A stretch of DNA of 62,635 nucleotides, filler included, from Kipferlia bialata (Eukaryota): NCBI GenBank assembly GCA_003568945.1. It is 5 parts of 5 records of this genome, joined end to end, with 100 filler letters (N's around TTAATTAATTAA, not from the genome) between each part and the next. Parts side by side here need not be neighbours in the genome. Positions count along the whole stretch, not along the records: positions 13,729 to 27,352 come from BDIP01000925.1; 4 more parts are not named here. One strand, written 5' to 3'. Positions 615 through 40,373 of the stretch are shown here, one piece after another (position 1 is the stretch's first letter; every line of letters starts with the position of its first letter). Below the pieces are notes generated by a model, which had not been told where the DNA came from, did no database searches, and saw only the letters and a program-made list of their open reading frames with translations. Made by a program: the position numbers and the translations under genes.

Positions 615-651
<37 letters not shown>

Positions 652-1283: not shown

Positions 1284-1398
1284 AGCTACTGGAAAGGAGG
1301 GTAATGGATAGATGTATCGAAAGACCCCCTTTTGTTACATGGCGGTTCATTTGAGTTTCCAACGTTAGCATCCCACCAGCACTAGACACTAACTAAGC

Positions 1399-10300: not shown

Positions 10301-13300
10301 GAACCCACGGGCTCTCTCTCTCTCTCTCTCTCTCTCCTTCTCCCTCCCTGACCTAGTCAGCGTCTGCAGGTGCGAGATGACCTGGGGTCAGATCCGTCAA
10401 TACAGGGAGATACTGCACACACTAACCAAATGCCTACCCTCTCCCCCTCACCCACACCCTACCCCCTACCACGTCCCACATACCACCCACCTTGACCAGT
10501 GCTGTGACGTCTCTCCCCAGGGTCTGTGCCACATGGCCTAGGGCACCCGTGCGGGACGTGATGTCACGCTGCGACACAAGGCGGCGGTGCTCCTGCAGGT
10601 CAGGAGGTGAATATCTACACAGATAATAACCCTCTCGTTCCTCCCACCCTCACCTCGGATATGGCACTGCATATGGTCTGGAGGGTAACACCATTCTGGG
10701 CAGAGGAAGTAGACAGAGCGGGGGTTGCCTGGTGGTGAGGGGGAAGAGGCTCTCTATGAGTCCCATAGCAAAGTACATCTCCTGCACAATACAGTGCTCA
10801 TACCTGCTGCAGAAGTAGACACGACACCTGCAGGTCCCGTCTGACTATGCCTGGGGGTCAAGGGGGTGTATAGTCCCAAAGGATAGCTCAGTATGGCCCC
10901 ACACTACTGAGACAATCATCCCGACCACTGGTATATGCATGTGTGTGTTTGTGTGTCCCTACCTGACGTGCCGTCCAGGAACTGTCTGGCCAGCTGGGCA
11001 CTCCCAATGGCACTGACCCACCTGCACATCAGAAGGGGGGGGGGGGTAGTAATAGCTGGGGACACTACACCCACCTGTATGTGGCTGTGTAGAGCCTCAG
11101 TGCCTGTCTAACGGGGTATGAGTACAGGGCCCCTCTATACGGTCTGGACAGGACACACAGCACAGTACGGGCAGATAGGGTGCCACAGGTGAGGGCAGAC
11201 ACCACCTGGCCCAGACACTCCTTGAGGGTGGTAGGCCTGCTGCCTCCCTGGGCCCCCTCCCTGCCACTCCCCCTGCCCTTGTCCTGGTGTATCTGGCCTA
11301 TACCGGCACTGCCGCAGAAGGCGTCCTCGAAGAACAGGGCAGTCTCAAGCACACCTGCACAGTCAGTATACATACAGTCAGGATATACATACAGTCAGTA
11401 CACATACAGTCAGTATATACGGAGATCGTATACCCAGTATGGTGGCGGGAGTGTTAAGTAGATACGTATGTGTCTCAATTTGTGGTAGAGTTGACAGAGC
11501 TGTGGGTGTATCTATCTCTATGCCGTACCCAGTCCCTCCCCTTCCTTCCCCTGGTCGGTGTGGGCCAACTTGGCGGCACCCAGCCTGGGGGGTCAGTGTA
11601 TAGAAGCAGTGGGTATACACAGTATGGGCCGAGGTCTATGACACACCCACCTGAACAGAGGGTCTGCTGGGCTGTAGGACAGACTGGAGCTGGACACAGA
11701 CAGGGCGGTGGACGAGGTCTCGAGGGCGGCACACACCTGGGGGTCAGAGGCATAGGCCTATATACAATGTGGTTACATCCGTAATCACCACCCAACACGA
11801 ATCCGTATCCCACCTCCAGCATCGGCTGCACCCATGTGGGCAGGGTGTGTATGGCACGGCAGGCAGGGGAGACAAGGGTAGAGGGGGGGTCCCTGGCCAC
11901 AGGGGTGGGGGGGTCGCATGTGATGGATGTGATGTCAGAGACGGAGGTGGCAGTGTGGGGCAGGGGGGTGAAGGTGAGAGGCTCGTTGGACAGCAGTGCC
12001 GCCTCATCTGTCAGAACGTCCAGTAGGGGCAGAGACCAGTGGCCCTGCGGTAAGGGAGGGGGCAATATATATGTACTGCAACACACAGACAGACTCTTAA
12101 CATGATACCCTCCGACCCATACACACCTCTCTCCTCATCCTGTCCAGGTCGGAGGGAGTGGCATAGAACCGGTTCTGCACCAGCTTCAGAATCATACGGG
12201 CGGCACAGATCCTAGCGGGTTACGGCAGACAGACACAGACATCAACAGAGTGAAGAACCGAGAGTAGTGCTAACGCGGGAATAAAGAAGGAGTACCTATC
12301 CTTTGCGAACAGCATGTTGTTGCGCCCCTGCTCTCTCTCGTCCTGGGTCCTACTGACCACGGACTGCCACAGGGAGAGATACGCATCATCGTTGAAGTCC
12401 CTGGGGTGAACGAGGGGGACAGGATAGGACATTGCCACTCAGCTACTGTAGTGCCGCACCTGACGAATCCCGACACCATGTCGTGGTCTCTGGTGCCTAT
12501 CACCGGCCCCGCTGCCTGTCTCTGCCTGGCCCTCTCTGTATCCACGACGGCAGGGGGGAGGGACAGGGCCTGGCGGTAAAGGGGGAGGGGGGGCTCAGTG
12601 CAAGGACATGCAAACGCAGACACACACATTCATATAAACTATATGTGCCTTCACCATCATACCTTAGACAGTGGCCCCTGGTCGGCGTATGAGTGGTGGG
12701 GGGGTATGGGGAAGGACAGCTTCCCGGGGCTGGTGAGGCCCTTACAGGCCATGACTGAGGCAGAGAGGCCAGGGCCCCCAGCCACACCCCTAGTACCAGG
12801 GGAGGCACCTGACCCAGACCCAATGTCTGTGTGACCCATACCCATATCTCTAGTAGGGGTGTGGTAGGGACGGGAGGTGGGGTAGACAAGACGCCGGGGG
12901 TGGGCAGCGGTGAATAGGGGAGAGATGCCCTGGGTTGGACATGTGAGGGGGGCATAGGGGATAGAGGTTGGATATATGGAGTCATCACTAGACTGACTCA
13001 ATTAGACACCACTGGCAGAGTACCCACCTTGCTCTTGATGGCATTGTCCCTGAGGGGGTAGTTCTGTCTGTCGGCAGCTGCTGTGGACGTGAAGCCACCG
13101 GAGACAGAGTCTGTGTCGATGCCTAGGGGGAGAGGGAGCGGGATACAGGGACACACTACAGCACCCAGTGTCAACACACAGGTATTTCTTACATACATAC
13201 ATATACACCCATCAACACATGCCCCCTACCTGTTCCAAAGATCATGTCGATCCACAGGTGGAGCTTGGCAGACACCTCAGGGGACTCCAGACACTCCCGG

Positions 13301-13610
13301 TGCCACCTGGAGTCAGTATCAGTCAGGGTGCATGGATACATGGATACATGGAGACATGAATACATGAATACATGGATACATGAATAAGGATATAAGGATA
13401 TATGGATATATGGATATATGGCCACCTGGAGTCAGGGTGCAGGGACACCAGGGAGAAGAAGACATGGGCCGAGTCAACATATAAAACCACCAACCATTCA
13501 GACCAGGCCTGTCTCTCCCCACCTGACGAACTGTGCCGGTGTCTGTGTCCAGTCGGGCAGCTGCATGTGGCCCAGGGTGGAGGGGAGGGCACACTGCTCA
13601 TCAAGCTCAT
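1399..13610 (-). CDS. Large multi-exon BEACH-domain protein with probable C-terminal WD40 region (WDR81-like layout); 5' end off contig
   Basis: Exons near 13523-13610 and 13229-13306 splice to MQLPDWTQTPAQFVR|WHRECLESPEVSAKLHLWIDMIFG, matching the BEACH consensus LPxWxxxPxxFVxxHRxxLESxxVSxxLHxWIDLIFG. Minus-strand exons continue to a stop at 1399. GLVASCGDAVSHLDLRTGSLLDSHTCSGMVTSIGW (~2345-2460) is WD40-like. That all exons form one gene is inferred, not every phase was checked. Confidence 0.6.
1650..1826. repeat. Intronic tandem repeat, ~16-bp unit GGGGTCAGTAACAGTA, with an internal N gap
   Basis: Visible directly. On the minus strand the unit TACTGTTACTGACCCC contains the branch-point-like CTGAC, and the array abuts an acceptor. 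Confidence 0.9.
13331..13420. repeat. Degenerate 8-bp tandem repeat (CATGGATA/TATGGATA) between a real acceptor and its short echo
   Basis: Visible directly. GCCACCTGGAGTCAG occurs on both sides, at 13302 and 13421. Confidence 0.85.
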
Positions 13611-13628: not shown

Positions 13629-13728
13629 NNNNNNNNNNNNNNNNNNNNNNNNNNNNNNNNNNNNNNNNNNNNTTAATTAATTAANNNNNNNNNNNNNNNN
13701 NNNNNNNNNNNNNNNNNNNNNNNNNNNN
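13629..13728. other. Artificial contig linker N44-TTAATTAATTAA-N44
   Basis: Identical 100-nt all-frame-stop spacer occurs four times in the window. Confidence 0.97.
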
Positions 13729-13734
13729 GTATAC

Positions 13735-16700
13735 ATGTCTGAGACTGGCCAAGGCACTCCCAGTCACACAGGGTAGGGGTATATGTATATATATATATAT
13801 ATATATATAGTGTTTCATGCATATCTGGTGGTGTCTTACCTACAATGGCAGCATGAGCAGCCAATGCGCTCCCACCATCACTGACCCCCAGTGGCTGATG
13901 GCTGTGTCAACCCTCATGCTGCACCCATCGAGGGCCTGGAGAAGGTATATATATCTCCAAAGGACGTGCTCTACCTATTTTCATATGGGTGGATACCAAT
14001 AATTATTCAAATACCCCTTTACATGTATACTCACATTTTCACCTCAGGTTGAGCAGTATCTGTGCCACCTTCTGCTGGCTCTTATACTCTGATGTGTGTA
14101 CTACATATGTATATATATGCATAAATATATATTTATACCTATTGTCGTACCCTCACCCCAGGTTGAGCAGTATCTGTGCCACCTTCTGCTGGCACTGAGG
14201 GCCACACACACTGCAGAGGGCATGGTGCCACTACTGAGAAAGGTTAGTATTTACAAAGACTAAGGATACAGTATATTTGTATACATATTTATATATACTA
14301 TTCCTCACAGCTCACACCAGGCCCTGCAGGCCCCAGTGCAGTCCAGGACCAAGACCCTCCCTCACCCTGTGGCACTGGTCACAGCACGCATCACGGCACT
14401 GACATCAACAACAGCCACAGAGGGAGAGGCAGAGGAGGAGGGTGCCGCAACCTCCTTTGCTGACGCGTTGGCCAGTGCACTGTGCACAGAGATTGATACA
14501 GGTGCATATATGTGTATATGTGTATGTATATATGTATATATAGATGTGTGATGCGTCAACTGTATCACACTGAGACTGACGCATAGACTGATGCTGATAC
14601 TGGTACTGAAATTGACACAGGTGCATATATGTGTTAGTTGTATCCACCGTCTATATGACTTTAGACACTAGACTGACACCAGCCTGCACTCTAGCCAGAG
14701 AGTCAGCCAGGGGCAGTGCCACCGATAGAGTCAACTGTAGACCAGCTGTGTCTGACCCCCTGTCCCGTATATGCGGCATCCTCTCCGCAGCTGTCTCTCC
14801 CTCGGTCTCAGTGTCACTGGCACAGGCATGCCTCACTCTATTAGAGATGCCATGCCCCAAGCACCCGGTGGCACTACTGAGGTTGGTATATATATATATA
14901 GATAGATATATATTATATTGGTATACTATATATACTCTTGGAGATACCATGCCCCANNNNNNNNNTATTATATTGGTATACTATATATACTCTTGGAGAT
15001 ACCATGCCCCAAGCACCCGGCACTACTGAGTGTGGGTGCATGTATATGTTTCTGGGAAAGATGTGGTATGTGAGATATTAAGATATTAACTGATTCTGAT
15101 TCTCAGGTCTGCCTCCCTCTGCGTGTCCAACTGTGCATCGGCACCAATGTTCGCAGACAGCAAGGTATTGATATGTCGCAATGTATATGCATATATATGT
15201 ATCTGCTATGGCACCCTGACTCCGAGGGGGACTGACTAGCCCTGTCTGTCTGTGTTGTGATGAACCATTCGCATATATATGTATATATATATATACATGT
15301 GTATGTATGTATATATATACATGCCGACTCTAGGCATTGGCTGACATGTCTGTCTGTGGTGCCAACCATACATATAATGCATTTGTTAATACTCCACTAT
15401 ATCCCCTCTCATGTATTATACAGACTGAGTCCTTTATCCTCTAACCCCAGTCCCTGACCGCCCTGTCTGTGTGTGGTGCCAACCTTCTGGTCTGTATGGC
15501 AGACAGTAGCCCACACTTAGTCATACCAGGTTTGTACTTACCCAGTAGTAGTATAGAGTGTATACGTCTACTGTTGCAGTAAACATATACATCTAGTGCA
15601 CCTTCCATACATATTGGAGAGATACTATCTTCCTTTCCCACCCACCCCAGAGCTCCTAGCCGAGTCCAGCCGTGTTGTGTCTGCATACACACAGGCACAC
15701 AGTGAGGGAGAGAGAGAGAGAGAGATGGTGGCCAGGGTGTACAGGGCAGCATTCGGGGCAGGGCTCAAGCACTCAGCTCAGCAGGTATATTATAGCATCT
15801 CCACTATGACATCGAGAGATGTCTTCTATTATCTACCTTTGAATTCATGTCATCTGACCTTCTAGGTCCGTCGCTTTGCCCTCAATGAGATTGCCCTTCT
15901 CCACTCAGTGGCAGACACTAAGATTGAGGGGCTCCTCTCAGCCAGGTATGTACACTTTGTAATACTCAGGTTTCTACAGGACTACCTCCTTGCAGTTTCC
16001 ACTCATCTCACGTAGTGATTTAGTTTATACTTCATCACGGGCTTCCCCCTAATCCCTAGGTATGTGCAGGACTACCTCCCTGTGTATTGGTGTATTACAT
16101 ATGTTCCATCATTACTATCCCCCTAACCCCCCAGGTTTGTGCAGGACTACCTGCTTGTTCAATGCCACATATAGTATACAGATGAATATAGTTTCAGCAA
16201 GACCATTATCCTTACATCCAGGTTTGTGCAGGACTACCTCCTTGTCTCCATCCAGGAGCACAGTATCGGTGTCCCTGCCCATGTTGCAGAGTGCAGAGAG
16301 GCATTCGAGAGGAGGGAGATGTTCAGACAGTTCCCAGAGTCAGGTAGTGTATATTTAGAAATACTATTTTCACATTTCTGCTATCCTTCCTCAACTCCAT
16401 AGTGCGGGAGATGACTATTCGTGCCGTTCTAATGTGACTCCCACTTCATTGTCATGCTGAAGTGCGTTTTTACCCCCAGGCAGTGTGCTGGATGAGTCTG
16501 AGCCTGAGGGTGTGTATGAGGGAATGAGGACAACTAGGTATGGGGGTGGTGTCAAGGTATTAACAATAATTATATATATGTGTGTGGATGTAACCTCAGT
16601 GCCTTTGTCGAGTCCATTGTGTCTGGCGTCCGTAAGCGTGTCAACAAGGCCCCCCATGACCCATGCAGTGTGGGAGGGGGGGCAGACAGAACAGCACCCT

Positions 16701-19700
16701 GCCTCGATGACCTCCACTCAAAGTATGTTCGATATTGATTCATATAGGATTTCTCCAGATACTCTGTTTACTCAACGTACGCTATTGGGTTATGCGCTCA
16801 CATGTGTATATCCACATCCTCTCACCCCCCCAGGACCCTTGACCGCCTCATCAGAGATGTCACAAAGTGCATCATCGCTCAGTCACTCAAGGTATTTGCA
16901 GTTGTAGATATACTGGAGTCCAACCACTAAGCACATAGTATTGTCACCTCACCCCTTCAAGTCTTTGACACTGCTGTCTAGTCCTACTTTTCATGAAGAT
17001 ATGTAGACGTCTACCAATTCTGACACCAAAAGGTCTTTGACGCCGCTGTCTCCCTTGGCTCCAAGACATTCTCCCCCGCCCTGTGTTTCTTTGGCAGCGA
17101 GAGGGCACTTCTGCTGTCCCTGTCGGCATCTCTGTACCTGTCAATGACACCAGAGGGGTTGTACGAAGGTACAGACAGCGCAGTCAGTATATATATCCTA
17201 CTCTACTCTCCATTTACATATATATATACAGCCTCACCCCCTAGCCATGTCTGTCCCTGAGACACTATCAGCTATTCAGTGCATCATTACTACCATTGCT
17301 ACCTACTCATTACTCACCCCCTAGCCATGTCTGGGCCTGATGGCGAGGCAGGCCCTGTCTGGATACACGAGAGACAGGTATATTTATTTTCCCTATATAT
17401 TGGGAACAGATACCCATATATCCGTCAGTGTGTAGTCTTAGTCTCATTGTCCTTACCCCTTCAGGTCCTTGTGAGCACCCTGTCCCTGTCATGTGTGTAT
17501 GTATATATACTGATACTGATACTACTCCATACATTATAATGCATACACATTGGTTGCTTGTCTAACCCTCCAGGTCCTAGTTGGCACCCTGTCCCTGTCC
17601 ATGCTGTCCTGTGGGTCAGCATCAGACGCTCAGGTAGGAAGATACTCAGCACAGAGTGGACATATACTATTTCACTTAATCAGCATCAGACGCTAAGGTG
17701 GGGAGAGGGAGTGTCTGATAATCTGTCAAGAGTGGAAATGACTCTAATAGCCTTAATCACTGGACTGTGATGCCAGGTGGCAGTATTAATTAATATCCCG
17801 CCGCATGACCTTCTCACCCATCTCCCTATGTGTATATATCCCTCCTCACCCCTAGCTGGACTATCAGTCCCTCCTCCACTCCGCCTCTCGTGTCATGTCT
17901 GTCCCCAAGCCCCCCTTCTCGGCCAGCGACAGAGTCTATGTGGTATCCATGTACTGTGCCACCCTAGTCAAGTCCATGTCCACACACCTAGCCCTGGGGG
18001 GTGAGGTGGTGCCTATGCTGCTGGAGTCACTGGGTATGCTACCTGTACCGGCATGTGCCCTGGTACTGAGGGAGTTGAGACGCTCTCTCCTCACTGCACC
18101 TGAGCATATTAAGGGTGTAGATGTATCTCACGCTGCCCTGATGGCTGCCATCCTAGGCTCCCTATCCTTAGACACCCAGTCCCCTCTGGAGCTGTCTGTC
18201 CTGGCAGCTCTCTCTCCCTCCCCCATCCCCATACCCATATCCCCCACTAATGATACCTTCCAGACCCTTGTCTCTGCAGTTGGGTACGGTGTCCCAGAGA
18301 CACTAGGTGATAGAGTCAGACAGGGTGTGATGATGGCACTTAAGGGTGTGGAGGGATGCCCTCTCTCCATAGTCTCCCATGTGCATCAGATGTCATCCCT
18401 GACTGATACAGACATTGAGGGGCTAGATGAGTGTGTGTCTAGTGCATCTCTTGGCAGTGTGGAGCAGAGAGCTGCCCTGACCCTAGTATGTGCACTGAAT
18501 GGGCAGGAGAGGCATGTCAACTTCGCAAAGGAGCAGGTGCGTTGTTGTCTCACTCTGGTATAGATACCAGGTGTGTTTGTGTGTTCTAACCTCCAGATCC
18601 CTGCCCTCCTCCCCCTCCTCGACCCCAGTCAGCCACTCCCAATGCTGCTAGTAGGTGGGGATCGGTACTCTACTATAGTGTTAGAATGGCAATGCCTACA
18701 GTATCAGTGCATTAGTGTTCATTGATACACTGATACTCACCTCCAGGCAAGGCCCTGAGGCACCTGGGTACCCTGCCCTCCCCCCTGCCCCCTCTGCCCA
18801 TGCCCAAGACACTGGAAGAGGCCATACCTGTATTCACACTGTGCGTCAGTCTGTGTCTGGCATGTGCCACAGTGGATGCAAGGTATTAATATACATATAT
18901 ATATCATACTTGTATATATATATATATATATATATACATATATGAATGTATATATATATAGATGTGTCAGTGTGTCAGTCTGGCATGTGCCACGGTGGAT
19001 GCTAGATATATATTTATATATCATACACTACTCATATATATTTGTATATATAGGTGCGTATACGTATATATATATCAGTGTCAGTCTGTGTCTGGCATGT
19101 GTCATTAGTGGATGCCAGGTACATACATTGTACTGCAAGAGTATGTGTTCTCTCACTCTGTCCCGTTCTGACCCCTCAGGGATGGATCCAACCTGTGTGT
19201 GGCATATGTGGAGAAGGGTGAGTATTGGACACACACCTACATGTTTGCGTTTACATACTGGTTGTATCATGGATTGACACTTCTGACTAAATACTCCCAT
19301 ACTTCCCCTCATCCCAGCCCTTGCCATCGGTGTCAAGTACAAGCGTCGCTTTGCATCCACCCTCAGGTATATGGTAATTTCACATTATTCAGATGTCAGA
19401 GAATCGTGTCTATCTATGGTATGTAGTATTACTTTTATAGTACAGCAATTGGTGACATACCCTTACATGTAGGAGAGGGGTGGGTGAGATCCTTGGCTCC
19501 AGGGACTTCCTCCTGGCAGCCACAAGGAGTGAGACAGTCAGAGGTATGTATACACTGTATATCATACATGAATTCTGTATACTGACACTATTTCAGTCAT
19601 TGTGTGGAATAGTTGCAACAAGGAGTGAGACAGTCAGAGGTGTGTATATGTGTAAATGGTAGATATAGATGAGTATCATTCTCTTCATCTCACCCACAGC

Positions 19701-22700
19701 TTCCTATGTCTCCCTGTGCACCAGCGCCCTATCATATTCTTCTTTATTCTTCTAGTCTCTTTCTCCGATATATATATAGACATATGTGTGTGTATTAGTA
19801 TGGATACATTTGTGTCTCACTCCCAGCTTCCTATGTCTCTCTGTGCACCAGTGCCCTGTCTGATGCTGTCAACCACCTGTCCAGTGTGCATCCCTCACTC
19901 ATGCCGGTATTGGAGGTATGTGGAATAATAAGTGATGTGTGTGTATTTCACACACATATAGTAGTGTTCTCAAACACATATTCTATGCCTCTCACCCCTA
20001 GACCCTCTCTGCCATGCGTCAGTCCGAGGCCGAGGAGTGTCTGCCCACTGTACTACCCCTGGTGCTCAGCTGCATATTCATGACAGTCGACACAGAGAGG
20101 TATCGGCTCTGGATATTGTATGTATGTAACATAGTTCTCTTCTTATAGAATATTGTGAACTATGCGACAGTAGACACGAGTCATTAATTATAGGCGCTGT
20201 ATAATATATGTACACAGTGTGTATATACATGTACTCTCACCCCCAGTGGTCTCCCCCCTGCCCCCATGTTGGCTGGAGCTGTCCAGTCTCTGGATGATAT
20301 ATATTGTATATCCATATATATATATATATATATATATAGATAGATAGATATTGAATGATAGATATACTCTAACCTAAGTGGTCTGCCTCCTGCCCCCATG
20401 CTGGCTGGTGCTGTCCAGTCCCTAGATGAGGCATCTCTAGTGGGGCCAGCAGAGGCACCAATCCTGTCCACATACGCACTCAGGCTCAAGGTAATCATAT
20501 ATATATGTATATATATATATACAATGTCTCTGTACGTACATGTCTGAGGCACCGATCCTGTCCACATACGCACTCAGGCTGAAGGTAATCATATATATAT
20601 GTATATTTATATATACAATGTCTCTGTACGTATATGTCTGAGGCACCAATCCTGTCCACATACGCACTCAGGCTCAAGATGTGCAGATGTATATATATAT
20701 ATATATATATATATACATTGTACATTATTGCATTTCCCATGTCTCTATATGCAGAGGCACCAATCCTGTCCACATACGCACTCAGGCTCAAGGTAATGCA
20801 TGTATTTGTATATATATTACTGCAAATTACCAAGTGTATTTGTACATCGGATCTTTAGGCCATCTCTGCCCTACCTATGCCTATAGATATTCATTATAGA
20901 ACAACACAGTCTTGTACTATCGGGGTACTATCTCACTCTCAGGCCGTCTCTGCCCTGCACCGCATTGTGTCCATTGTATATATCTATCTATATATGTTTA
21001 TTATGTTATAGTGTATGTGGATACATATATACTGCACATGTCTCACTCTCAGGCAGTCTCTGCCCTGCACCGTATTGTGTCCAATGTCCAATGTTTATTG
21101 TATATATTATATTATAGTGTATGTGTATTCATAGACTGTACATGTCTCATCCCCAGGCCGTCTCTGCCCTCCACCGCATTGTGTCCAATGCCCCTCCCTC
21201 CGTGGCATCTAGTGTGTTTGTGATGGGGGTGGACATCATGAACGCTAGAGATACAGGTATGTATATGATACATGTAGGAGTCATGTCCTTCTTTGTGTCC
21301 ATCATATTACGTTTAACTCCAGCTGCCTCTGGGGCTCTCTCCCCCCTCTCTGCCTCCTGTCCCGTTGGCATATTCAACACAGTCTGTCCACAGGCCATCA
21401 TGCAGCCAGACAAGAAGGTAGAGTAGTGTATGTGTTGAAATATTATAATGATATATAGATGTATATTCAAAGGTAATAATATTGTAGCCAGACAAGAAGG
21501 TGTTACACGCATGTAGATACGAATGTATTAGATATATAGATGAATGTTTATAGATAATAATAATAGATGAATCTATGTGTATACATCTAACCCCCAGGCC
21601 TCCACGTGGGGTGCCCCTGCCCGTGGTCTGCAGCACATCCAGCGGTGCATGAGGATGGTTGTATCCCATGCCACGCCCACCCCTGCCCTGGGTGCTGCCC
21701 TGTCCTCTCTCTTTGGATCACTGGTGGGGACAGGCTGGGCCAGGGAGACTAGGTATAGATGGGTATATGTATATATACAATAGTATATACATAATTGTAG
21801 TTGATTATATGTATCGGTGTCTATATCTCTATATCACTGGTGGGTACAACAGGGTGGGTCATTGTTACTACAGTATTATCGTATTATGCTCTCACCCCCT
21901 CATGGAGACTGTGGAGCAGACCATCACTCTTCATATATATCCATGAATAGATGATTGTATGGGGATGTATTACTACAGTATCATACTATGCTCTCACCCC
22001 CCAGGGAGACTGTGGAGCAGACCATCGCGGCTGCCCTCCTCAGATACCCTGACCCCCATGCTGCACTGTACACTCTGTTCAAGGAGGTATGGATGGATGT
22101 ATATGTGTGTATATATATATGTGTGTTTATATATATATGTATATATATATAGACAGAGAGAGAGAAAGTACATATATCCCTGACCCCCTTTGCTACACTC
22201 TGTCCAAGGAGGTATGGGTGGATTTATATGTACTCACCCTCAACGTCATATATATTATCACTCTTGGGCAATGTGGGCCATCCTCTAGACACATATCAGC
22301 ATGGATAGTGATGAATACATTGACACCTATGTATATTCCTTCTCCCACCCCCAGGGCAACGTGGGACATGATCTAGACACGTATCAGCTAACATATATAT
22401 ATATATGTATATATATATGTATATATATATGTATATATACATATTCCTTCTCTCACCCCAGGGCAACGTGGGCCATGCCCTGGGTGCAGGTGGCACCCCA
22501 TACGCACAGGCCAGCTGCGTCATAGCAGGTATGTATGTATATATGTGAGTGTGTGTGTGAGAGAGAGAGAGACGTTGTCCCCCCCTTACCCCAGGTCTTG
22601 TCACCTTCCAGACTGTGGTCCTAAAGGGTCAAGACGCCATGTCCACCGTTGACTTGGTCAGACTCATATCCCCTGCCCTACTGGCCGGTACCCACTCTGT

Positions 22701-25700
22701 CAGACCAGCAGCATTTGCAGTGGTGCTACAGCTGCACGAGGCTGCGGTGGCTCAGGTGGGTATAATGGAGTGATATACGATAGTAGTCTCATGGCACTAT
22801 ATCGGCATGTTAAATGGGTTTCCTTTGTCTATTCACCTCTTACCTCTTCTCTCACTCCTAGGAGGCTGCCAACCCCACAGTGGGAGGGGGCATGACCAAG
22901 CCTGAGAGGTGGCTCCAGGTATGGCATATGTAGTAGTGATACTCAATGAAGCCGGTTATTCCATTGCTATTGCATAGCATCCATCTAACCCCCTAGGCCG
23001 TCGGCCTGTCCTAGTATCAGTCAATCTGAGTGTATATATTATGTAATCCATCTAACCCCCTAGGCCGTCGGCCTGTCCCCCGAGATGGTTCAGACCATGG
23101 ACATGCACTTCAGAGTCACATCCGCACAGGCAAAGTTCAGGTATTGAATGTATATCATCTAAAGATGTAAGAGGGGTGTGTTCTGTATATAGACAGAGTA
23201 TTGTGGCTTTAGAGTCACCTCCGCACAGGCTAAGTTCAGGTGGGTATTGAACGTAGTATATTTCTTCTTTTACTAGGAAATTGAAAACGGCTATTTGGGG
23301 TATGTATGTTGATTAAGAGTGAAGATTCCATGCACTCACCCCAGGGAGCTGTTCCGTGTCATGACCCCAGCCGAGGGGATGCAACACGCATGTCTGCCAG
23401 GTATCAATGGTGATGGGTATATTGAATCTACCATGTCTATGATATCGTTCTAACTTCATTTTGTTGATCGTATCATTACCATGCATGTCTGCTAGGTATC
23501 AATGGTGATGGGTATAGTGGATGATATGGCATTGCCACACCCCACTGATTCTAGTTGCACTTCTTACCTATACGTGTCAGTTTTGACACCTCATTCACCC
23601 GAGACCCTAATACTGCCTACACCGTGTCCTATATATATATGTATATATACTATCCTAGTCACTAGTTAAACACATCCAGTATATATATCATAACCAACCC
23701 CAGACCCCAATGCTGCCTACACCGTCTCCGTGTCCGACCTCTACCACTCAGCTGACAAGGGAGGGGTGGCTGCGTTCAAGACAGCAGCAGCACTCGGAAA
23801 GTGAGTTCGGATCATCCTCTCTCTCTAACGATATACCACCCTCCCCTGCCCCCTTCCTTCTCTCTCTCTCTATATGTAAATATACATATCTGTATCCTCA
23901 CCCCCCAGGGCCTATGACCTCCTTGGCGAGCTGAGGAACAGAGAGCTGGAGGTGGTGGCAGCGGCTGCAAAGGTACATATCTAGTGTCTACATATGACAT
24001 ATACATTCATCATGGATATGTATGTATTCATATGCAGAGCTGGAGGTGGTGGCAGCGGCTGCAAAGGTATTCATATATACTTGGAAATTGTTGAAATTGC
24101 AATGTATGACTGATAGGTCTCTTCTAGTTGAGAGTTATCATACGTAGGATCATCACTGCATATGTCATTGTTGCTATATCAGACATTGATTCTCACCCCC
24201 CAGGCCGCCAATGTGGAGAGAGAGGCCCTCCTGAGACAAAAGATTGAGAAGGACAGGGAGAGAGAGGTCAATGTCCTAGTTGCACCCGAGAGCCCACCTG
24301 CACAGAGACCGGCAGAGGGAGAGGGAGAGAGAGAGAGAGAGAGAGAGGCTGTCCCTGAGAAGGAGGGTGATACTGAGATGGTGGTCAGGCAGAGGAAGAT
24401 TATGGTGGAGGCGCCCACCGAGAAGGTATCGTGTAGTTTTGTGCCTATCGACATATATATGCTTGTATTGTCTCACCTCTAGGCTGCCGCTGAGATGTTG
24501 GCTGTGTCCACCCCTGAGACTGATGAGACATCATCCACCAAGGAGTGTATTGTGTGTGCCTCTCTGCTGGACAAGCCACCCAACCTGGGGGGACTCGCTA
24601 GATCAGGTGAGGGATGATACTTGTAGAATACTCGAGTGTTTACTATCTGAAGTATGGGTATATAGTCATGGATGTGTTGAATATGACTGTACATGTTAAC
24701 TCCTGCTGAGATCTTTGGCATACCATGTAAGTATCATCTACCCGACTCGGCTAGCACAAATGTCGTACCTATACATATGTATATATATACCTGTTAACCC
24801 CAGCTGAGATCTTTGGCATGTCGAGCCTTGTCCTTCCATCCCTGTCAGTCACAGGGGACCCGGTGTTTAAGGTATATATAGAGTGGCTTAATCATATGTA
24901 TTGTATCGTATTCTTACTGGAATCCAGTCACAGGGGACCCGGTCTTCAATATGGGGCATGCCCAATGACACGTGTATTCTAGATGCTTACTCACCTATGT
25001 TCATACTCACCCTAGGCCCTGAGTGTGTCTGCCCACCTTCACGTACCACTGCAGGCTGTCCCCCCTAGTGACCTTAGGCCATGGCTCAGACAGAAGCAGA
25101 GGGAGGGGTATGCCCTGGTGGCACTGGAGCAGGTGTGGTACATATTATCCATAAGTATAGATGTTCAATTTATCATATACTGTCTTGATACTTTGTTTCT
25201 GTATGCCCTGGTGGCTCTGGAGCAGGTGGGTGTCACCGGTGTACCTTAGTATTTGTTGTTGTGTTGTATCTGTTGGGCGTATAGATGCCACCCATATCAC
25301 CATCACCTTACCCCAGTGTGAGACCAGTGTGTCCCTCGAGAGTGCCTCCCTTCCAGCTAGATGTGTCATAGTGCTAGGCAATGAGAGAGAGGGAGCACCA
25401 GACGACATACTGGGTAGGGTCTACTACATATATATCGCTACCTATACATCCCATTGTGTATATAGCATTGCAGTCTTCCTCCTTGACTCCTAGGCATGTC
25501 TGACCTCCATGTCCCCCTTGATCCATCTCTCTCTCTCTCTATCTATCTCTCTCTTTCTCTCTCCCTCTCACCCCTAGGCATGTGTGATCTCCATGTTGAG
25601 ATCCCCCAGCTCGGATGCATCAGGTGGGTACATTGCAGTATTATATCAATACATAACTGTTTCAATATATTCATATAGATTTATGGTTAGTGGTCTCTAT

Positions 25701-26062
25701 CACTATCCAGCTCGGATGCATCATGTGGGCGACGGATACTCTACATGGTTTCAATACAATATGTATTTTCCCTCATCAGTCACCCTCTGAATATACACAC
25801 TGATGTTATCCCTCTCTAGCTATACTATTGTTTTTAGTCCCCCCCCCCCCTGACAACTATTATACCTCTTTCCCCAGGTCTCTGAATGTGCACACTGCAG
25901 CTATATATATACACATATAGATTTGTATATATATATATATAGTATATATATATAGTATTAGTATATATATATATATATCTTTCCCCTCACCTTAGGTCTC
26001 TGAATGTGCACACTGCGGCTGTCCTCCTAGAGTGGAGGTGGATATCCCAGCACAAGCTGTAG
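13735..26062 (+). CDS. TARBP1: TARBP1/Trm3-type tRNA (guanosine-18 2'-O)-methyltransferase: long helical N-terminus plus C-terminal SpoU domain; 5' end probably off contig
   Basis: Spliced C-terminus: ECIVCASLLDKPPNLGGLARS|AEIFGMSSLVLPSLSVTGDPVFK|ALSVSAHLHVP..GYALVALEQ|CETSVSLESASLPARCVIVLGNEREGAPDDIL|GMCDLHVEIPQLGCIR|SLNVHTAAVLLEWRWISQHKL*. All three SpoU motifs are present. About 11 kb of upstream same-strand exons fit the large Trm3/TARBP1 size. Confidence 0.88.
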
Positions 26063-26816
26063 GAGGGGCAGGAGTCAAGTACCCTTGGACCACCGACAGT
26101 GACGCATTGCACGATACACTGTCGGTACTCCCTTCTTGATACGGTGACACGTGTCTCGCGGCTAGAGATTAGACCTTAGGACGATCCTCAGAAGCTTTGC
26201 AGGCAGACCAGTATTGTCTGTTCTTAACCATCACATTTGTACAACCGGTCGGTATCGGGGACATGCATCCCCCTGACCGTCAATAGAACGTTCGTGTCAC
26301 TATTCCTCCTGGTAGTTTGACTCCGTCGAACACAGTTAACCACATGGTTGGATTCTACTGAGACCCGTGAATCGGGAGACCGCATTTGTGATACGTTGCT
26401 ATCTGCATCGACCGTCGCTAGCAAAGTAGGTAAAACTGCTTTAATAGCTGTGTGAATTACACACTGTGTAACACACAAATCCAGCCACACTACGGTCCGA
26501 CATAGATACACGTCCACGCATCATAGTATACCAAAGGAAGTACGGTTGGCAGCAGTGACCCTACTACATCTAGGATCGTGAACATAAGCTATCCGATTGA
26601 GGCGAATAGGTGGTTTTGACGTCCAAAGTTTGGCACTTTGCTCCATTCCCAAATGTATACTTGTCAATGTGTCCATAGTGAAATTGCTGCTGAACTGTGT
26701 AACAGTAAGACACTGCCTCATACTAAACTTGTTCTCTAAATGTCATAGTCTAGCAGGCCAAACAAGCTGAATGTAGAGACACCATCATGTGACCAGGCAC
26801 CACACTTACAGCCCAT

Positions 26817-27352
26817 CTATGTATATTCAACATCACCAAACACCTCAGGGAGAGTGTCTGTGCGTACTAAGTAGGCATGGTTCTGGTCTGCCACTAGAAG
26901 GATGTGGGTGGGACTGAGCACACACAAGGTGGCATAGTAGCTTGCTCGGGTCTCCAGCCGTACCCAATCCTTCGTCTCCCACTCACCAGACACTACGTCA
27001 TAAGTATGTATGGCCACTATCGTGTCCGTGGCCCCTTTAGCTCCTATGATGACATGACTGGTGGTACCAATTGACATGCGGCGATACTCTTTGAGTGGAG
27101 TAGGGGTGTCTTTCACCCATGGAGAGTGAATGAATTCTGATCTCACGTAGGGGGCTGAGAAGTGGTCATTTGTGTAGCTGCCTGTGTCACTACGGAGCAT
27201 ACCGAAGATGTGTGGTACACCAGATACAGTCACACACTCAAGAAGACTCATCGGATAGGGTAGGTCCCGTAGTCTAGTCCAAGTCTGCTGCACTGTATCA
27301 TACTCCCACACAGAGTCGTGACCTCCATGTGTACCGCGGTACCCACCAGCCA
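26817..27352 (-). CDS. Kelch-repeat protein, intronless in the visible part, 5' end off contig
   Basis: Open frame from the contig edge: AGGYRGTHGGHDSVWEYDTVQQTWTRLRDLPYPM..VPHIFG..IHTYDVVSGEWET, which are Kelch GG/YD/W motifs. Confidence 0.8.
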
Positions 27353-27452
27353 NNNNNNNNNNNNNNNNNNNNNNNNNNNNNNNNNNNNNNNNNNNNTTAA
27401 TTAATTAANNNNNNNNNNNNNNNNNNNNNNNNNNNNNNNNNNNNNNNNNNNN
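27353..27452. other. Artificial contig linker
   Basis: N44-TTAATTAATTAA-N44. Confidence 0.97.
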
Positions 27453-27735: not shown

Positions 27736-30700
27736 CTTGGTTTAGAAGAGAGACATGCAGGATCTGACTCTGGTGGCATGCTCGGATACACAGCCACTGA
27801 CCCTGAAAGACACCCCCACCCCCACTCCTCCGAGGACAGGGACGTCAGGGTGCGCCTGGCAGAGCTGTGCACCCTGTGGAGCATAGCGCAGACGCCATTC
27901 TACTACGTCACAACTAGGTAACGCTGCTTATCTTTATATATGTACGGGTAGACTCCATCCTACCCTGGCACAACAGGTGGGGGCATATGAGGGTGCCAGA
28001 TCTAACGACGCCGACAATTATGTGTCCTCTCTGAATTGCTATGAGCACCATGTCTCTGTGTTCCCTAGCATACCTGTACCATACCCTTGTGACCCCTCAC
28101 CCAGGGCTGAGCTGACCGAGGTTGTGTCCTTCCTGGCCATGCACTCTGCCATCGGCATCGACCTCGAGCACTCCTCCCTCAGCTACCACGGCACGGTGTC
28201 CCTCATCCAGGTGGGGTAATAGGTTATATGTATATATATACTGTATATACAGGTGGGGTTAAGGGTTGTGCCAGTGATCACCTTCTGTATGAACTCTGCC
28301 AATACAGACAGGCTGTGTAGACCTCCCTCCCTCACCCCGCAGATCTCTGTCCCTGGCTATGACTTTGTGCTGGATGCATATGCCCTGTACCCCCACATGC
28401 ATCTGCTCAGAGGTATCATTGACACTCTCACACAGGATATTGGTGACACTGGCAGTGGCGTGGATACATATTTGTGTGTCAATGAGTGTTTATCATGCAT
28501 ATATATATTGGTCAGAACGTGCAGTACCTGCAATCACAAGGGCGATATCTGTTCAGAGTTTGTTGCAATTGTACACAATTGCCATGCATGTATGTGCGTC
28601 TTCACATCCTCCTACTTCTGCCAGGTGTGTTTTCCGACCCCACCATCATCAAGGTGCTACATGGGTCCGACAATGACATCCTCTGGCTCATGAGGGACTT
28701 CAGACTCTACATAGGTGTGTATAGACATGTCTCTCATTCCATGTATGGGTTTGTATATGTACCAAGATGGGTGTGGGGTCAATACCTCAGACTCTAGATA
28801 GGAATGAACTATATCAAGCGCTTGTACAGAGTGCTCATTTAAGAATGTATATATGCGACAGGGAGGTTGGCATCATATAGCAGTGTCTGGTTAGGCAACA
28901 CCATCCTGTCCCACTGTGGTACCTGTTTACTTGTCAATCCTCCCCCCATCCATATATCCATGCATTCTGTAACACTGGTCCCGACCCTGACCCCAGTGAA
29001 CCTGTTTGACACGGGTAGGGCCGCCAGGGTGCTTAGGAAGGGGGCCGGCCTGGGGTCACTGCTGAGGGAGTGCTTTGGGATACAGATGGACAAGGAGCAG
29101 CAGGTGGGGACACACGGTGCATATACATATACACTGCAACTCAGTCACTGGCTCTACTGATGGATACACGTCTCTGGTACTGTCCACCTACCCCCCTTCT
29201 TACCCCAGACGTCAGACTGGTCCCTCCGGCCTCTGTTGCCAGTCCAACTGTTCTATGCCAGGTACCAACCCTACATATGGCACTTCAACCCGTGTATACT
29301 AACCGTCTGAGTGTGTATCCCCCTACCTCATACAGGTGTGACACACACTGGCTGCTGCCTCTGTTCCACCGGCTGACTGCCCTCCTGGCAGAGAGGGGCG
29401 GGTATGCCGAGGAGCAGGCATGGCTACACAGCAGACAGGTACCAGTGGTAGTGGCTATGTGTATGTGTAGAAGTATATAGTGAAGTATATATATATAGGG
29501 TATGGCTACACAGCAGACAGGTACCAGTGATAGNNTGAAGTATATATATATAGGGTATGGCTACACAGCAGACAGGTACCAGTGATAGTGTCAGTGGATA
29601 TCAAGTATAGAGTGGTCTTGATCTGCGAGGTCGCATGTCGTGACTGGAAATTATATATATATATCTATATTCACAAGTATGTGAAGTTCCCTGTTTCTAC
29701 GTGGTGACTGAGTATTCCATTCCGTCTCTTTCCGCCTCTGACCCTAGGTGTCGCTGAAGGTGTTTAGACCCACACCCCCAGACAATACTCGCCATCTACC
29801 CCTCCTGGCAGATACCTACGAGGGAGACATGGACCGACACCGCAGGGGCAGGGGATCCCATGTGCACACACCGCGTATGGGGGTGCGGGGCCAAGCGTCT
29901 GTGTCACCTGTAGCCCAGGCACTCCTTCTGCACCTCACGGCATATGTGGACACACTAGGCGTCTACCTCAATCTGTCGCCAGGTATGTATGATTTAAATG
30001 TCGTCGCGCCCTAGTGTGGACCTCCCATAGCCTCCGTCTTCATGTAGCCTCTCTCTCCTCTCTACCCCCAGACACTGTCTGTGGCGGACGGGACCTGGCC
30101 CGATTGGCTCTGTCCCTCTCTGTCATCCCACCCTCCGCCATCTCGAGGGAGAGTGTCCTGTTCGGCCTCTCCCTCAGTGCCCCCCCTCTCATAGCTGCCA
30201 ATGCCGCAGAGATAGCCCTGCTGGCCCAAAGGGTGCTGCAGTACAGAGCCCCCCCGCCACACACCCAGCCACACACCCAGCCACACCACGGCCATGGTCA
30301 AGTATACCCCCCTGGGGAGAGGGTGAGGGAGAGAGACAGTGGAAGGGAGAGCGCTATGAGAGACAGAGCCCCCTCCTACGGTAACACCCGGCCCCCCTCC
30401 CAGCCCAGTGGGGGTTGGGGGGCGAGAGAGGTTATGGCACCGCCTGGGGGTCCCCCACCCCCACCCCAACCCCAATCCCAGTACCAGTACCAGTATCCAG
30501 CCACCAACCCAGGTATCAGTAGTATGTTTGTCACTCTAAGCTGCTCGATACCTCCTCTCCCTCCACTCTTACCCCAGGAGTGCACTGTCTGGATGACCTG
30601 TACCATGCGGTGGGGTGGGACATGCCCCAGGACAATAGAGGGGGGTGGGACGGCAGGGGGAGAGACAGGGAGAGGGAGAGAGCGAGGGAGGAGTGGCAGT

Positions 30701-31811
30701 GGGAGAGAGAGGATGCTGCGGAGTCAGATGGAGAGACAGACGGTGTAACTGCTCTCAGTAGTGGAGTCGACATCTTTGCAAGGTGAGGCGTTGTGTCATT
30801 ACTCATGTAACGATACACCAGAGTGAATGGGGGACTGTGTTGCAGAATATGGATTGGATTCTGTTGTGTTACCCCCTTACTCATTGCAGGGCTCTAGACC
30901 AGAAGCTCATCAAGCAGAGTTCTAGGGACAAGCACGGTCCCCCCCAGAGTGGGAGGGGCAAGGAGATCTTCAGACAGTTTGGCGATGCCTCGTTACATGG
31001 GGCGGCACCTGGATACAGAATAGGTGGGGTAGACCTAACGAATGCTGATGTATATAGTTGCCCTACTGTAATATACTGTACTGTATATAGAGGTATGTGT
31101 CGTGCCCTACTGTAATATACTGTACTGTATATAGAGGTATGTGTCGTGGGTGGGTGGCCCTTGAGTCAAAGATCTTGATGCTGCTAATACTTCAACTTGC
31201 ATACACCACATCCCCCTCTTCCCCCAGGTGACATAGGCCCAGGATCTAAGGTCTCAGCCGTCACAGGAAACTCCCTGTCTGTTTCCGTCGAGTTTGCGTC
31301 TTCTGTAGAGGGAATGTCTGTGCTGGTATGTGACATAAGTAATATGACATAACTTGGCATAGTCTTGTAGTTGTATATAGCTTTACACAACTAATCTTGG
31401 TAAATATCCGGAAACATCGTTGTCTCCTGAATCACAGCTCATCGCGTTGGTGTTTTCTGTGACACTTGTGTAGTTAGGCCTTTAGATTTTCGTGTCTTCC
31501 TCTTCCCCTCTGTCTCTGAGTCTAACCCCCAGGACGTGCTGCACCAGACAGGTATCGACCAGGTGCTGGGGCGGAAGGAGAGGGAGGACATCGCCCACAT
31601 TGGGGCAGGCAGAGACAAGGAGGGGCCTAGCCGCAGGGAGAGGGAGAGGAACAGACGAGAGGCCAGGGGGAGTAAGGGGAGGGAGAGAGACGGTGATGGC
31701 AGTCGAGATAGCCGATCTCGCTCCTCTGGTCATAGAAATAGTCACCCCCGCGACAGGTCTGGGGAATCGAACCCAGGGAGAAGGCGAGGTTATGATGACC
31801 CAAGATTGTAG
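27736..31811 (+). CDS. RRP6: Exosome-associated DEDDy 3'-5' exoribonuclease Rrp6/EXOSC10-like; true start not resolved
   Basis: Spliced: AIGIDLEHSSLSYHGTVSLIQ|ISVPGYDFVLDAYAL..|GVFSDPTIIKVLHGSDNDILWLMRDFRLYI|VNLFDTGRAARVL..MDKEQQ|TSDWSLRPLLPVQLFYAR|CDTHWLL. Exo I, II and III motifs are intact. Ends in a low-complexity R/G/S-rich exon with a stop at 31811. Confidence 0.9.
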
Positions 31812-37093: not shown

Positions 37094-37133
<40 letters not shown>

Positions 37134-37615: not shown

Positions 37616-40373
37616 ATGTCCGGCACGTCTGGAGCTAGTAAGAGCCGAGCTGTGATTAATGAAATTGAAGAGGTATATATGTACTCTCGTGCTACTGTCA
37701 CATGCGTTCTCGTTGTGTATGCACGCTATTCAGTGTATTCTTACCTATGTGGCTGCAGACTAAGATGATACTGCATCTGCCGTGGTGTCACACTGAGTGA
37801 TACTGGATTGATTGTTGAGTACTCTCTCTCTCTCACCCCTTGATAGTCCTGACTCCATTCCTACCCCCCCCCCCCTTCACTCTCTCTATATTGAGTCTCG
37901 GTGACTGTGTGAGTCTCTCTCTCTCTCCCCCCCTCTCTCTCACTCCTTTCCATCCTGACCCTAGGTCCTTGGCACAGGGTATAGTAGTCAGTATATTCAC
38001 ATACACTCTCTCTCTCTCTTTCTTTATCCATTTATCACTGTATGATCCCATCTCACCCTAGGTCCTTGGCACTGGGTATGACACATCAAATGTCGGTGCT
38101 GGTATGACCAGGTTTAGTGAGGTAATAGCAAATATGTATATGATTGTATACTCTCCACATACCTTTTTGCACTTGGTCTTGCCACCCCTCCCACCGAGAG
38201 GTACTCCTTTGCAATATTGCATATATATATATAGATATACCAGACACATATGTATCTGGCTGTCTGTCCCTACATTCATATCTGTTTACCCTAGTCCTTT
38301 GCGGCCCCTCCCACTGAGAGGGCAAGGGGCAGAGAGAGAGACAGAGACGCATATGGGACAAGAGGGCCCCTGAGGGGAGACTACAGGTATGCGCTTTATA
38401 TACACCCAACATGTTGTTTCCTTCTGTATTTGTATGTGATGTGTATTGTTTTATCTTTCCATTAACGTCCAGAGGCGACCTCACTCCACAGATGGGCAGA
38501 GACACAGCTCCTAGGTATATATACATATCCACACTATATTGGTGTATGTATGTCCTGTATGTATGTATATACTATAGTATTAGACACACTCCACGTATGG
38601 GCAGAGACACAGCTCCTTGGTAGCATAGAAGTATATAATTGATATTATCAGATAGGTACATAATTATTATTAATAATGAATATAGTATAGAATATATACC
38701 CACAGATGTCTCTTTGTAATCAACACTTTCAGGGCCTCCATAGTAGCCCTAGACCGTCTCTCTCTCTCTCAAACGCTCCCTATATACCTGTCATACTCAT
38801 TAGTATCTAATAATGCAGAACTTCCATCCTTCTCTCTCTTCTTCTTCTCTCTTCCTTCTTCTTCCTCTTCCCTCTTTCTCTCTAAGCCCTCAATCTACTG
38901 TATCTGTCTTTCCCCAAATTCCAGGGCATCCACGCTGACCTGGATGGTCTGTCCCTCATCCTATCACTACTATACTATATAATTATGCAGTTATATGTAT
39001 TCATGTATATATGCATGTACATACTCATATGTATCTCATTCCAGGGCATCTACGCTAACTCTGGACAGTCTGTCCCACAACCAGTCATTCGCTCAGACAA
39101 GGTATAGACATATGAATATATATATACGTAAGGGATGTAGGATGTATATGGATGTTTGTGTATATAGTGTGTCTGTCCCACAACCAGTCCTTTGCTCAGA
39201 CAAGGTATGAATAGTATATATATATATATATACGTATATACATTTCATTCGTATGTAAGATAGAATAGTGATAATGTGTGTGAGTAGATGTGTCTGTCCC
39301 ACAACCAGTCATTTGCCCAGACAAGGTATGAATGTATATTTGGTTATGTATATATTCATGTTTCTCACCTAGGATGAAACAGTCGAATACCGACTGAGAG
39401 AAGGAGTGAGGTTTCATTATATAAGTGTGTATCTATATTCTCTTTTGTTCCTTATACCCCAGAGGTGCCAGAGAGAGGTCCGAGTCATTCGAAGACGCAG
39501 CAAACAAGGTATTATTCTGTATATACTTATCTATATAGGTCCTATAATAATAGGAAGACGCCGCAAACAAGGTATTGGACTATTTTGGTATTGACTGATA
39601 AGTATGTATCGATGCTTTCATGTAATATATATATATACTATATATCGTAGATAGTCTCTCTTCATATAATGACTTCAGGCCATATCCATAGTGGATGCTG
39701 TCCTATCCATACCACCTAGGCGCATATGATATGCATTGTATTGTATATATCTTTATCTATATGTATTTAGGTACTAATATACCAGGCCATATCCATAGTA
39801 GATGCTGTCCTGTCCATATCACCTAGTTATTACATGCATTGTATTATGTATATACATATATATCTGAGTGAATATAGATATATATACTAATATATACTAA
39901 TATACCAGGCCATATCTATTGTGGATGCCGTCCTGTCCATACCCCCAGACACCTATATATATAGTATGTCATACGTATCAAATATTTACATGTATATATT
40001 CTAACATGTCAGGCCATATCCATATTAGATGCCGTCCTGTCCATACCCCCTAGGCGCATACACATTCCTATGTATATGTTGTCTATGTATACTTACAGCA
40101 TATTTACAATTCCATGTACTAATATGTAGGCCATATCCATCGTTGATGCCGTCCTGTCCATACCACCGAGGCGCATACACATTCCTATGTATATGTGTGT
40201 ATACTTACAACATATTAACATATTCATACAATAATGTCATCACATATATACAGTATATATGAATTAGCATATATGTACTAATACACCAGGCCATCTCCAT
40301 AGTAGATGCTGTCCTGTCCATACCACCCAGACGCATATCCAAGGACCAGATCAGAGATATGCTGAATGTATAG
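37616..40373 (+). CDS. Small multi-exon uncharacterised protein (~145-160 aa) with echo-filled introns
   Basis: MSGTSGASKSRAVINEIEE|VLGTGYDTSNVGAGMTRFSE|SFAAPPTER..GDYR|GDLTPQMGRDTAPR|ASTLTLDSLSHNQSFAQTR|GARERSESFEDAANK|AISIVDAVLSIPPRRISKDQIRDMLNV*. Splice phases are consistent, and the frame is independently supported by synonymous differences in the echoes. Confidence 0.7.

Follow-up and report, generated by a model that had tools for sequence, protein, structure and literature searches.

In Kipferlia bialata, described in its genome report as a free-living fornicate with 124,912 introns (PMC5874029), the introns of several genes carry partial copies of the edge of the neighbouring exon. 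These copies, here called echoes, were analysed in a window of 62,635 nucleotides (nt) from this genome (GCA_003568945.1), mainly in a TARBP1/Trm3-like gene. The echoes lie in cis in the DNA, are dead at present and differ from their exons mostly by silent changes. The preferred reading, to which a probability of roughly 0.55 is given, is that they are unused copies whose coding part was copied again from the exons of other alleles through recombination between homologues.

The TARBP1 gene and its echoes

The window consists of five scaffolds joined by linkers of N, and the TARBP1 gene lies on the second one (13729-27352). The gene (13892..26062, + strand) is 5'-partial and was modelled by hand as 42 exons encoding 1518 amino acids. 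All 41 introns are GT-AG and the frame is open across the 1518 residues. The model is identical to the partial K. bialata protein KIPB_004361 of NCBI, which is also the one database protein matched by a long TARBP1 exon. Residues 1364-1516 match the PDB entry 2ha8 (E 5.6e-37; next match 3e-7) and the Pfam family SpoU_methylase (PF00588) is found at residues 1369-1507, in agreement with the identity given to the gene by the first-pass annotation. The predicted C-terminal SpoU methylase domain, placed behind a long N-terminal region, is closest to that of human TARBP1. The TARBP1/Trm3 family are tRNA Gm18 methyltransferases, which methylate G18 of tRNA. A 46-nt repeat within 14911-15011 flanks a gap of nine N (14957-14965) and probably results from an overlap at scaffolding rather than from a true duplication.

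An echo is defined as an intronic copy of the edge of the neighbouring exon. Head echoes contain the acceptor and the exon start and lie upstream of their own exon; tail echoes contain the exon end and the GT and lie downstream. The TARBP1 scan was blind to frame, ungapped and anchored at each exon edge. At the strict cut (score of at least 11) it yields 33 echoes in 22 of the 41 introns, which bears out the first-pass statement of more than 20 pairs, spread over most introns; all pairs listed there were recovered, at positions that differ by no more than a few bases. A looser cut (score of at least 10) yields 35 echoes, and 25 of the 41 introns hold an echo when weaker copies are added to the tally. 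When the same scan compares exon edges with non-adjacent introns, 0.00 copies are expected. In the adjacent introns no exact 14-mer was found that derives from TARBP1 exon sequence more than 55 nt away from the edge, and at equal score the gene holds 27 echoes against two intron-only repeats.

Six further modelled genes of the window were scanned in the same way. Genes A, B and D have 24, 4 and 10 echoes for 13, 3 and 6 introns, respectively, and genes R, S1 and S5 have 3 echoes for 10 introns, 1 for 66 and 1 for 29. The models of A, B, D and R were made by hand, with frames taken from the continuity of open reading frames. A small gene finder, which after training on the others recovered 38 of the 42 TARBP1 exons, supplied those of S1 and S5. 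A further gene, C (41251-44083, + strand), was left out of every count because its frame is uncertain. Beyond TARBP1, three genes of the window (A, B and D) are echo-rich and two long genes are nearly free of echoes. The echo-rich genes have an intron GC content of 0.35-0.39 and more TA runs, versus a GC content of 0.44-0.50 in the echo-poor ones.

Over the seven genes there are 76 echoes (40 head and 36 tail) in 49 arrays, mostly single copies. The coding part measures 11-51 nt (median 26, n=76), the repeat unit 48-172 nt (median 99) and the spacer 33-141 nt (median 72, n=76). The AG or GT dinucleotide is kept in 65 of the 76 echoes and lost in 11. Similarity ends at the splice motif: the intron flanks of echo and exon are unrelated in 56 of 65 cases and homologous in 5, and the 56 include 12 echoes without any coding difference. 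Similarity over the whole unit is present in some arrays (20452-20704 and parts of gene A).

Presence in the DNA and use in splicing

K. bialata is reported as diploid from two k-mer peaks (PMC5874029). Contigs of the DNA run X1, from a separate (Logan) assembly, were aligned over 13730-25880, which leaves the last 180 bases of TARBP1 outside. Within this interval, 18 of the 32 echoes sit with their own exon on one X1 contig, at the same depth as echo-free sequence. The depth is 445-484, and the eight long pieces listed show no alternative letters or gaps; contigs of this kind drop rare variants. Since these 18 echoes share single contigs with their exons at flat depth, they are real cis copies, and stitching of haplotypes is not supported.

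The contigs of a second run, X2, which has no RNA label on record, were treated as RNA because their joins coincide exactly with GT-AG introns. Eight pieces, six from one X2 contig and two from a second one, run at a constant offset to the echo-free spliced model. Of the 33 TARBP1 echoes, 18 fall between X2 anchors and, given the constant offset, none of them adds length to the mRNA. The exon pieces listed match the exon copy and show no other letters. The bin 20632-21037 has no X2 cover, yet one contig joins across it. The mRNA check that the first-pass annotation had called for thus finds the echo splice sites unused across 18 echoes in the major mRNA form, which is the only form that X2 contigs show; a swap of equal length in small exons outside those listed is possible.

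Many of these unused sites are strong. The decoys fall within the score range of real sites for 70% of the head-echo acceptors and 64% of the tail-echo donors, and they outscore the real site in 13 of 40 acceptors and 14 of 36 donors. The acceptor of exon 24 (20367-20378) ends in AAG and looks weaker than its decoy 132 nt upstream (20235-20246). The decoys are strong and would be picked if the nearest sites across the intron were paired, but splicing in the RNA contigs falls on the sites closest to the exon. This choice points to exon definition; decay of mis-spliced RNA could contribute.

The spacers were also considered as complete introns with the echoes as mini-exons. Only 2 of the 76 spacers are shorter than 45 nt, where random breakpoints predict 33-56%, and spacer lengths resemble those of ordinary introns (median 72 versus 79, though with a Kolmogorov-Smirnov p of 0.03). 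The blunt ends of the head echoes show no excess of donors (12/40 versus 37%), and for this reason the idea was rejected. At the blunt start of the tail echoes there is a weak excess of acceptors (6/36 versus 5.9%, p 0.02 at one of three thresholds). Programmed excision with the echoes as pointers was rejected, as the DNA shows no change in depth and the RNA pieces listed agree with the exon copy. Target-site duplication by transposons was dropped too, the spacers being mostly no closer to the flanks of other introns than background.

Two explanations bear on whether the echoes are what they seem. The first-pass annotation had considered that an assembler stitched several haplotypes in tandem. 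The window is a short-read scaffold with N gaps, an intron-only repeat flanks the gap at 14957-14965, 14 of the 32 echoes are unbridged among the X1 contigs listed, and X1 may be the window's own source and no independent sample. The bridged echoes at equal depth in a separate assembly nevertheless speak against such an artefact, as do arrays with six distinct copies, which exceed two haplotypes, and it is the least probable of the explanations weighed here. Direct selection on echoes that are translated in minor isoforms, or that replace the exon edge by alternative splicing, would account for the real-site scores of so many decoys, for the weak acceptor excess at tail echoes and for the several echoes that a simple gene finder called as mini-exons. 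Against this stand the RNA contigs, which fit the echo-free length with no other letters in the exon pieces listed, the missing donor excess at head echoes, the 11 of 76 echoes without a splice dinucleotide, and the frameshifts, stops and random replacements reported below; such selection is very improbable, only slightly less so than the artefact.

Silent excess and present decay

The fair null is a dead copy that mutates everywhere beside an exon that changes only silently. It predicts a ratio of replacement to silent differences per site (pN/pS) of ~0.5 and a silent share of 41-47%, a range that spans transition biases of 1-4. The first-pass expectation for a dead copy, which let changes fall on all sites, was too loose, but the data still reject the corrected null. 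Between TARBP1 echoes and exons there are 33 silent and 12 replacement differences (73% silent), with pS of 0.13-0.15, pN of 0.02 and pN/pS of 0.13-0.16 (p 1.5e-5 to 3.5e-4 against the null). Genes A, B and D give 48.5 silent and 17.5 replacement differences. All seven genes together give 83.5 and 31.5, or 66.5 and 28.5 when each variant is counted once per array (p 1e-8 to 5e-6 against 0.5); unique variants without the richest array are 54.5 and 26.5. Among variants confined to a single echo of their array, 23 are silent and 13 replacement, and comparison of echo with echo gives 71 and 41 (ratio 0.22, from pairs that are not independent). In the two wrong reading frames 14 and 8 of the 115 differences are silent, versus 83 in the true frame.

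The individual counts quoted by the first-pass annotation hold: the pair 20247/20379 has 6/6 silent differences, the pair 23207/23108 has 3/3, and the YALVALEQ and SLNVHTAA pairs have 1/1 each. The silent majority is real, but its description as overwhelming was overstated, since the most favourable pairs had served as examples. With a lenient gapped detector, whose alignments also extend into unrelated spacer, four genes give 107 silent to 81 replacement and 124 to 100 differences (55-57% silent; ratio 0.26-0.35; p 8e-6 to 6e-3). Depending on the detector, pN/pS lies between 0.13 and 0.35 and the null of a dead copy is rejected.

The silent differences fit a single rate (chi2 84.7, df 75, p 0.21), which does not tell the models apart. 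Among the 128 codons covered by several copies, 4 show three synonymous states, a hint of more than two donors. Other changes are those of decay. Gaps in the echoes are frameshifting in 10 cases and in frame in 3, and the 28 distinct replacements include two stops and have a mean BLOSUM score of -0.64, versus -0.58 for random changes. The replacements thus score like random changes, and their reading as tolerated polymorphisms is unsupported. Splice-dinucleotide bases are changed at 13 of 152 positions, above the prediction from pN; this loss may reflect selection against decoys or homology that ends at the edge. Given the frameshifts and stops, the echoes are not translated, and they are dead now. 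The first-pass proposal that both copies evolved as coding sequence is therefore retained for their ancestry and not for their present state, in which they are also absent from the RNA contigs. The pattern has two parts: random decay of ~0.02 per site, and a silent-only surplus of ~0.10-0.13 that was probably gained under selection.

Proposed origin and rival explanations

The reading preferred here would run as follows. Repair of a break near an exon edge would duplicate that edge. Only units that cross one splice site would survive, because duplications of a whole exon or inside an exon would alter the protein. The spliceosome would use the site nearest the exon body, by exon definition, so that the decoy is tolerated. 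Subsequently, the AT-rich spacer would drift past recognition and the coding part of 11-51 nt would be overwritten from the exon of the homologue faster than it decays. The difference between echo and exon would then equal allelic divergence filtered to silent changes (~0.10-0.13 per silent site) plus ~0.02 random changes per site acquired while dead. Sex would not be required, since a clonal diploid that carries two diverged homologues reaches a low ratio as well. Recombination by Dmc1 only is a candidate driver. Fornicates are described as lacking Ku-dependent end joining and Rad51A and as having two Dmc1 (PMC8516963), and Dmc1 is reported to tolerate mismatches (PMC8682777).

Forward simulations were run with 150 diploids, a theta of 0.13 and three runs each. 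Exchange within one chromosome gives pN/pS of 0.54-0.58, unlike the data, so that the first-pass suggestion of cycling copies does not fit if the cycling stays within one chromosome. Exchange between homologues gives a ratio of 0.32 at 4Nc 1, 0.18 at 4 and 0.06 at 16, and one-way exchange gives 0.25 at 4Nc 2 and 0.11 at 8. At 4Nc 4-8 exchange between homologues yields pS of 0.10-0.18, pN of 0.01-0.03 and a ratio of 0.11-0.18. Clonal diploids give 0.03-0.04 with higher pS, and cis rebirth with ordinary allelic recombination gives 0.11-0.45, depending on the rates. Since only exchange between diverged homologues yields the observed ratios in simulation, such exchange appears to be needed, by whatever route and with or without sex. 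The other first-pass suggestion, capture from diverged alleles, fits these simulations, but no second allele was found that would prove it. The unrelated flanks and the rarity of intron-only repeats favour old structures with refreshed coding parts.

Two explanations dispense with copying between alleles at the echoes. The echoes could be young, ordinary tandem duplications on one chromosome with fast turnover; normal allelic recombination in a highly polymorphic population would then have parted them from the exon of origin. Simulated rebirth at 4Nc 8 with recombination at 4Nr 10-40 does give 0.17-0.19, and the 5 of 65 echoes with a homologous flank show 7 silent differences and 1 replacement. 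Young copies should, however, keep an alignable spacer, which 56 of 65 do not, and intron-only repeats should not be as rare as 2 against 27 echoes. This explanation also requires intron alleles far more diverged than silent sites, and it is considered unlikely. Somewhat less likely still, and disfavoured, is the view that the echoes are neutral relics within a single lineage, each copy keeping an older state of an exon that has since changed silently and possibly mutates faster. No special process is required for this; copies below 85% identity approach neutrality, the lenient estimate is nearer 0.5, and the exon differs from all its own echoes at 7 variants, 5 of them silent. On the other hand, equal mutation rates bound the ratio at ~0.5 (0.52-0.58 simulated) and every estimate is lower (p 2e-12 to 6e-3), as is the echo-versus-echo ratio, and slow mutation of the copies conflicts with the scrambled spacers.

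Several results weigh against refreshing from other alleles. For genes A, B and D the frame was taken from the continuity of open reading frames and not from RNA. The lenient ratio lies closer to 0.5, copies below 85% identity are near neutral (pS 0.26, pN 0.19), and in a tail echo of gene C at ~41383 most differences look, by eye, non-synonymous whichever open frame is taken. The simulations are simple, with a theta set to match the data. The X1 contigs aligned over ~12 kb show no second allele, which would require homozygosity of the locus in the sample, and no relative turned up when metagenomes were scanned with two TARBP1 exons, which is weak evidence; thus no echo variant is matched to a real allele. 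Four-gamete pairs are absent from 7 arrays with few informative sites, and pS shows no clear rise with array size (0.142, 0.121, 0.164). A homology of 11-51 nt falls below the length at which conversion is efficient in model organisms.

A wider form of the proposal is tentative and clearly more doubtful than refreshing itself. In echo-rich regions every exon edge would belong to a small conversion pool, in which mismatch-tolerant, Dmc1-only recombination trades tracts of 15-50 nt between the exons and echoes of different alleles. The introns would then be an archive of population alleles, readable from one homozygous genome, with a silent diversity of ~0.1 or more and more than two donors, hence outcrossing. 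Exon definition would be evident, from hundreds of strong decoys, in a species whose spliceosome is reduced and whose introns are short.

Distribution along TARBP1 and neighbouring genes

All TARBP1 echoes are on the + strand. Exon 2 (14162) has a head echo at 14048..14079 (32/32 identical, intron flank unrelated). Older, gapped tail echoes belong to exon 3 (14576..14620) and exon 27 (21826..21870), the tail echo of exon 4 (14990..15030) has a gap and has lost its donor, and exon 6 has an older head echo (15338..15367). Three head echoes precede exon 9, which starts at 16222 (15970-15992, 16060-16083 and 16135-16158), and are bridged by one DNA contig. The head echo of exon 13 (16961..16979) has lost its acceptor. 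Two short echoes, the head echo of exon 14 (17245..17260) and the tail echo of exon 33 (23480..23495), score 10 and fall under the strict cut. Exon 15 has a head (17465..17490) and a tail echo (17680..17697), exon 18 two tail echoes in 18978..19118 (18978-19005 and a gapped copy from 19080), exon 21 a tail echo (19618..19639) and exon 22 a head echo with 2 silent differences (19700..19730).

Exon 24 (20379) follows the head echo with six silent differences (20247..20297) and is itself followed by three tail echoes, at 20546-20584 (2 silent differences, homologous spacer), 20640-20678 and 20751-20792. The three head echoes of exon 25 (20859-20872, 20943-20973 and 21053-21086) are bridged by a DNA contig. 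Exon 26 has a tail echo (21486..21499), exon 28 a head echo with a changed acceptor AG (21904..21925) and a tail echo with an internal gap (22178..22211), and exon 29 two head echoes (22267-22281 and 22355-22370). The head echo of exon 32 lies at 22997..23011 and its tail echo, with three silent differences, at 23207..23239. Further echoes are the head echo of exon 34 (23604..23629) and the tail echoes of exon 35 (24036..24066; 31/31 identical, flank unrelated) and exon 39 (25201..25225). Exon 38 has a head echo without acceptor (24706..24721) and a tail echo without donor (24925..24950), exon 41 a head (25494..25512) and a tail echo (25707..25724), and exon 42 two head echoes in 25785..25902 (an older copy from 25785, and 25878-25902).

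Gene D (37616..40373, + strand) has 7 exons and 10 echoes in 4 of its 6 introns. Its last exon has five head copies (39679-40177), in which three codons each occur in three synonymous states. By eye, the head of its exon 5 has a much older copy at 38733-38763 (+ strand), which is in frame and shows mainly third-position changes. Gene B (45461..46557, - strand) has 4 exons, and two of its 3 introns together hold 4 tail echoes; additional head echoes upstream of them, at ~46700-47170, were left uncounted. Its product is small and cysteine-patterned and presumably resembles a saposin-like domain, although two single exons gave no such Pfam match. Gene A (48008..54317, - strand) has 14 exons and 24 echoes in 10 of 13 introns, in arrays of up to five. 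In gene C one exon has four head copies (41579-41945), three of which are followed by a good donor.

Gene S1 (308-13610, - strand), used as a control, is a predicted gene of 67 exons with a BEACH domain (PF02138), short GC-rich introns and its single echo. A short-period tandem repeat surrounds an N gap at 1651-1830, in an intron of the gene on scaffold 1. Gene R (27736-31023, + strand) is a 3'-5' exonuclease gene with weak PF01612 matches on three exons, which we take to be Rrp6-like. Between genes R and D, ~6 kb (31800-37500) hold few splice motifs and no echoes. The linkers (13629-13728, 27353-27452, 41069-41168 and 54772-54871) are runs of N with a 12-mer that carries stops in all frames, and the genes on either side of them are unlinked.

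Relation to known systems and significance

The first-pass annotation did not recognise the system as described; for the layout this is wrong, since it is that of the amphioxus mirage minisatellites. According to two reports (PMC3087553, PMC3902484), these occur in Adh3, the globins BflGb6 and BflGb9, troponin C and PGBD5, as repeats over one exon-intron boundary at either exon end, with units of tens to ~160 bp; many units, not all, keep the AG or GT, and splicing is normal. Mirages are further characterised by copy numbers that vary between haplotypes or cells. The Kipferlia repeats likewise span the boundary beside the parent exon, at either exon end, have units of similar length (against ~10-160 bp), mostly keep the dinucleotide and leave splicing undisturbed across the 18 TARBP1 echoes covered. 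Unlike mirages, they occur in a metamonad protist, where more than half of the introns are affected in some genes, they are mostly single, and their spacers have ordinary intron length. The BflGb6 units are 81-100% identical throughout, whereas the Kipferlia flank is rarely homologous. The Kipferlia echoes work like mirages, yet most fail whole-unit similarity. A silent excess under the single-lineage limit is not mentioned for mirages in the accessible parts of these sources (PMC3087553, PMC3902484). The literature searched, with most subscription papers outside the search, gave no account of that excess or of the Kipferlia echoes.

The Rogers model, as outlined in PMC3087553, explains intron gain by tandem duplication of proto-splice sites. 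The echoes share with it an internal duplication that multiplies splice signals; they differ in that no new intron is used, the RNA keeping the outer sites and the blunt ends of head echoes lacking a donor excess.

In gene-pseudogene conversion and in inter-allelic minisatellite exchange, recombination keeps a dead copy similar to the working one. By comparison, the Kipferlia tracts are only 11-51 nt long, lie ~100 nt from the parent exon and occur at most exon edges.

Exon-edge copies of this kind can mislead gene finders. The pN/pS limit of ~0.5 provides a simple test that is also applicable to animal mirages. The species has 87 of 174 spliceosomal proteins (PMC6679479), and the decoys offer a natural experiment on how splice sites are chosen in it. 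The literature searched holds no allelic or recombination data of this kind for this free-living relative of Giardia; if refreshing from other alleles is true, one genome records both its allelic diversity and its recombination between homologues.

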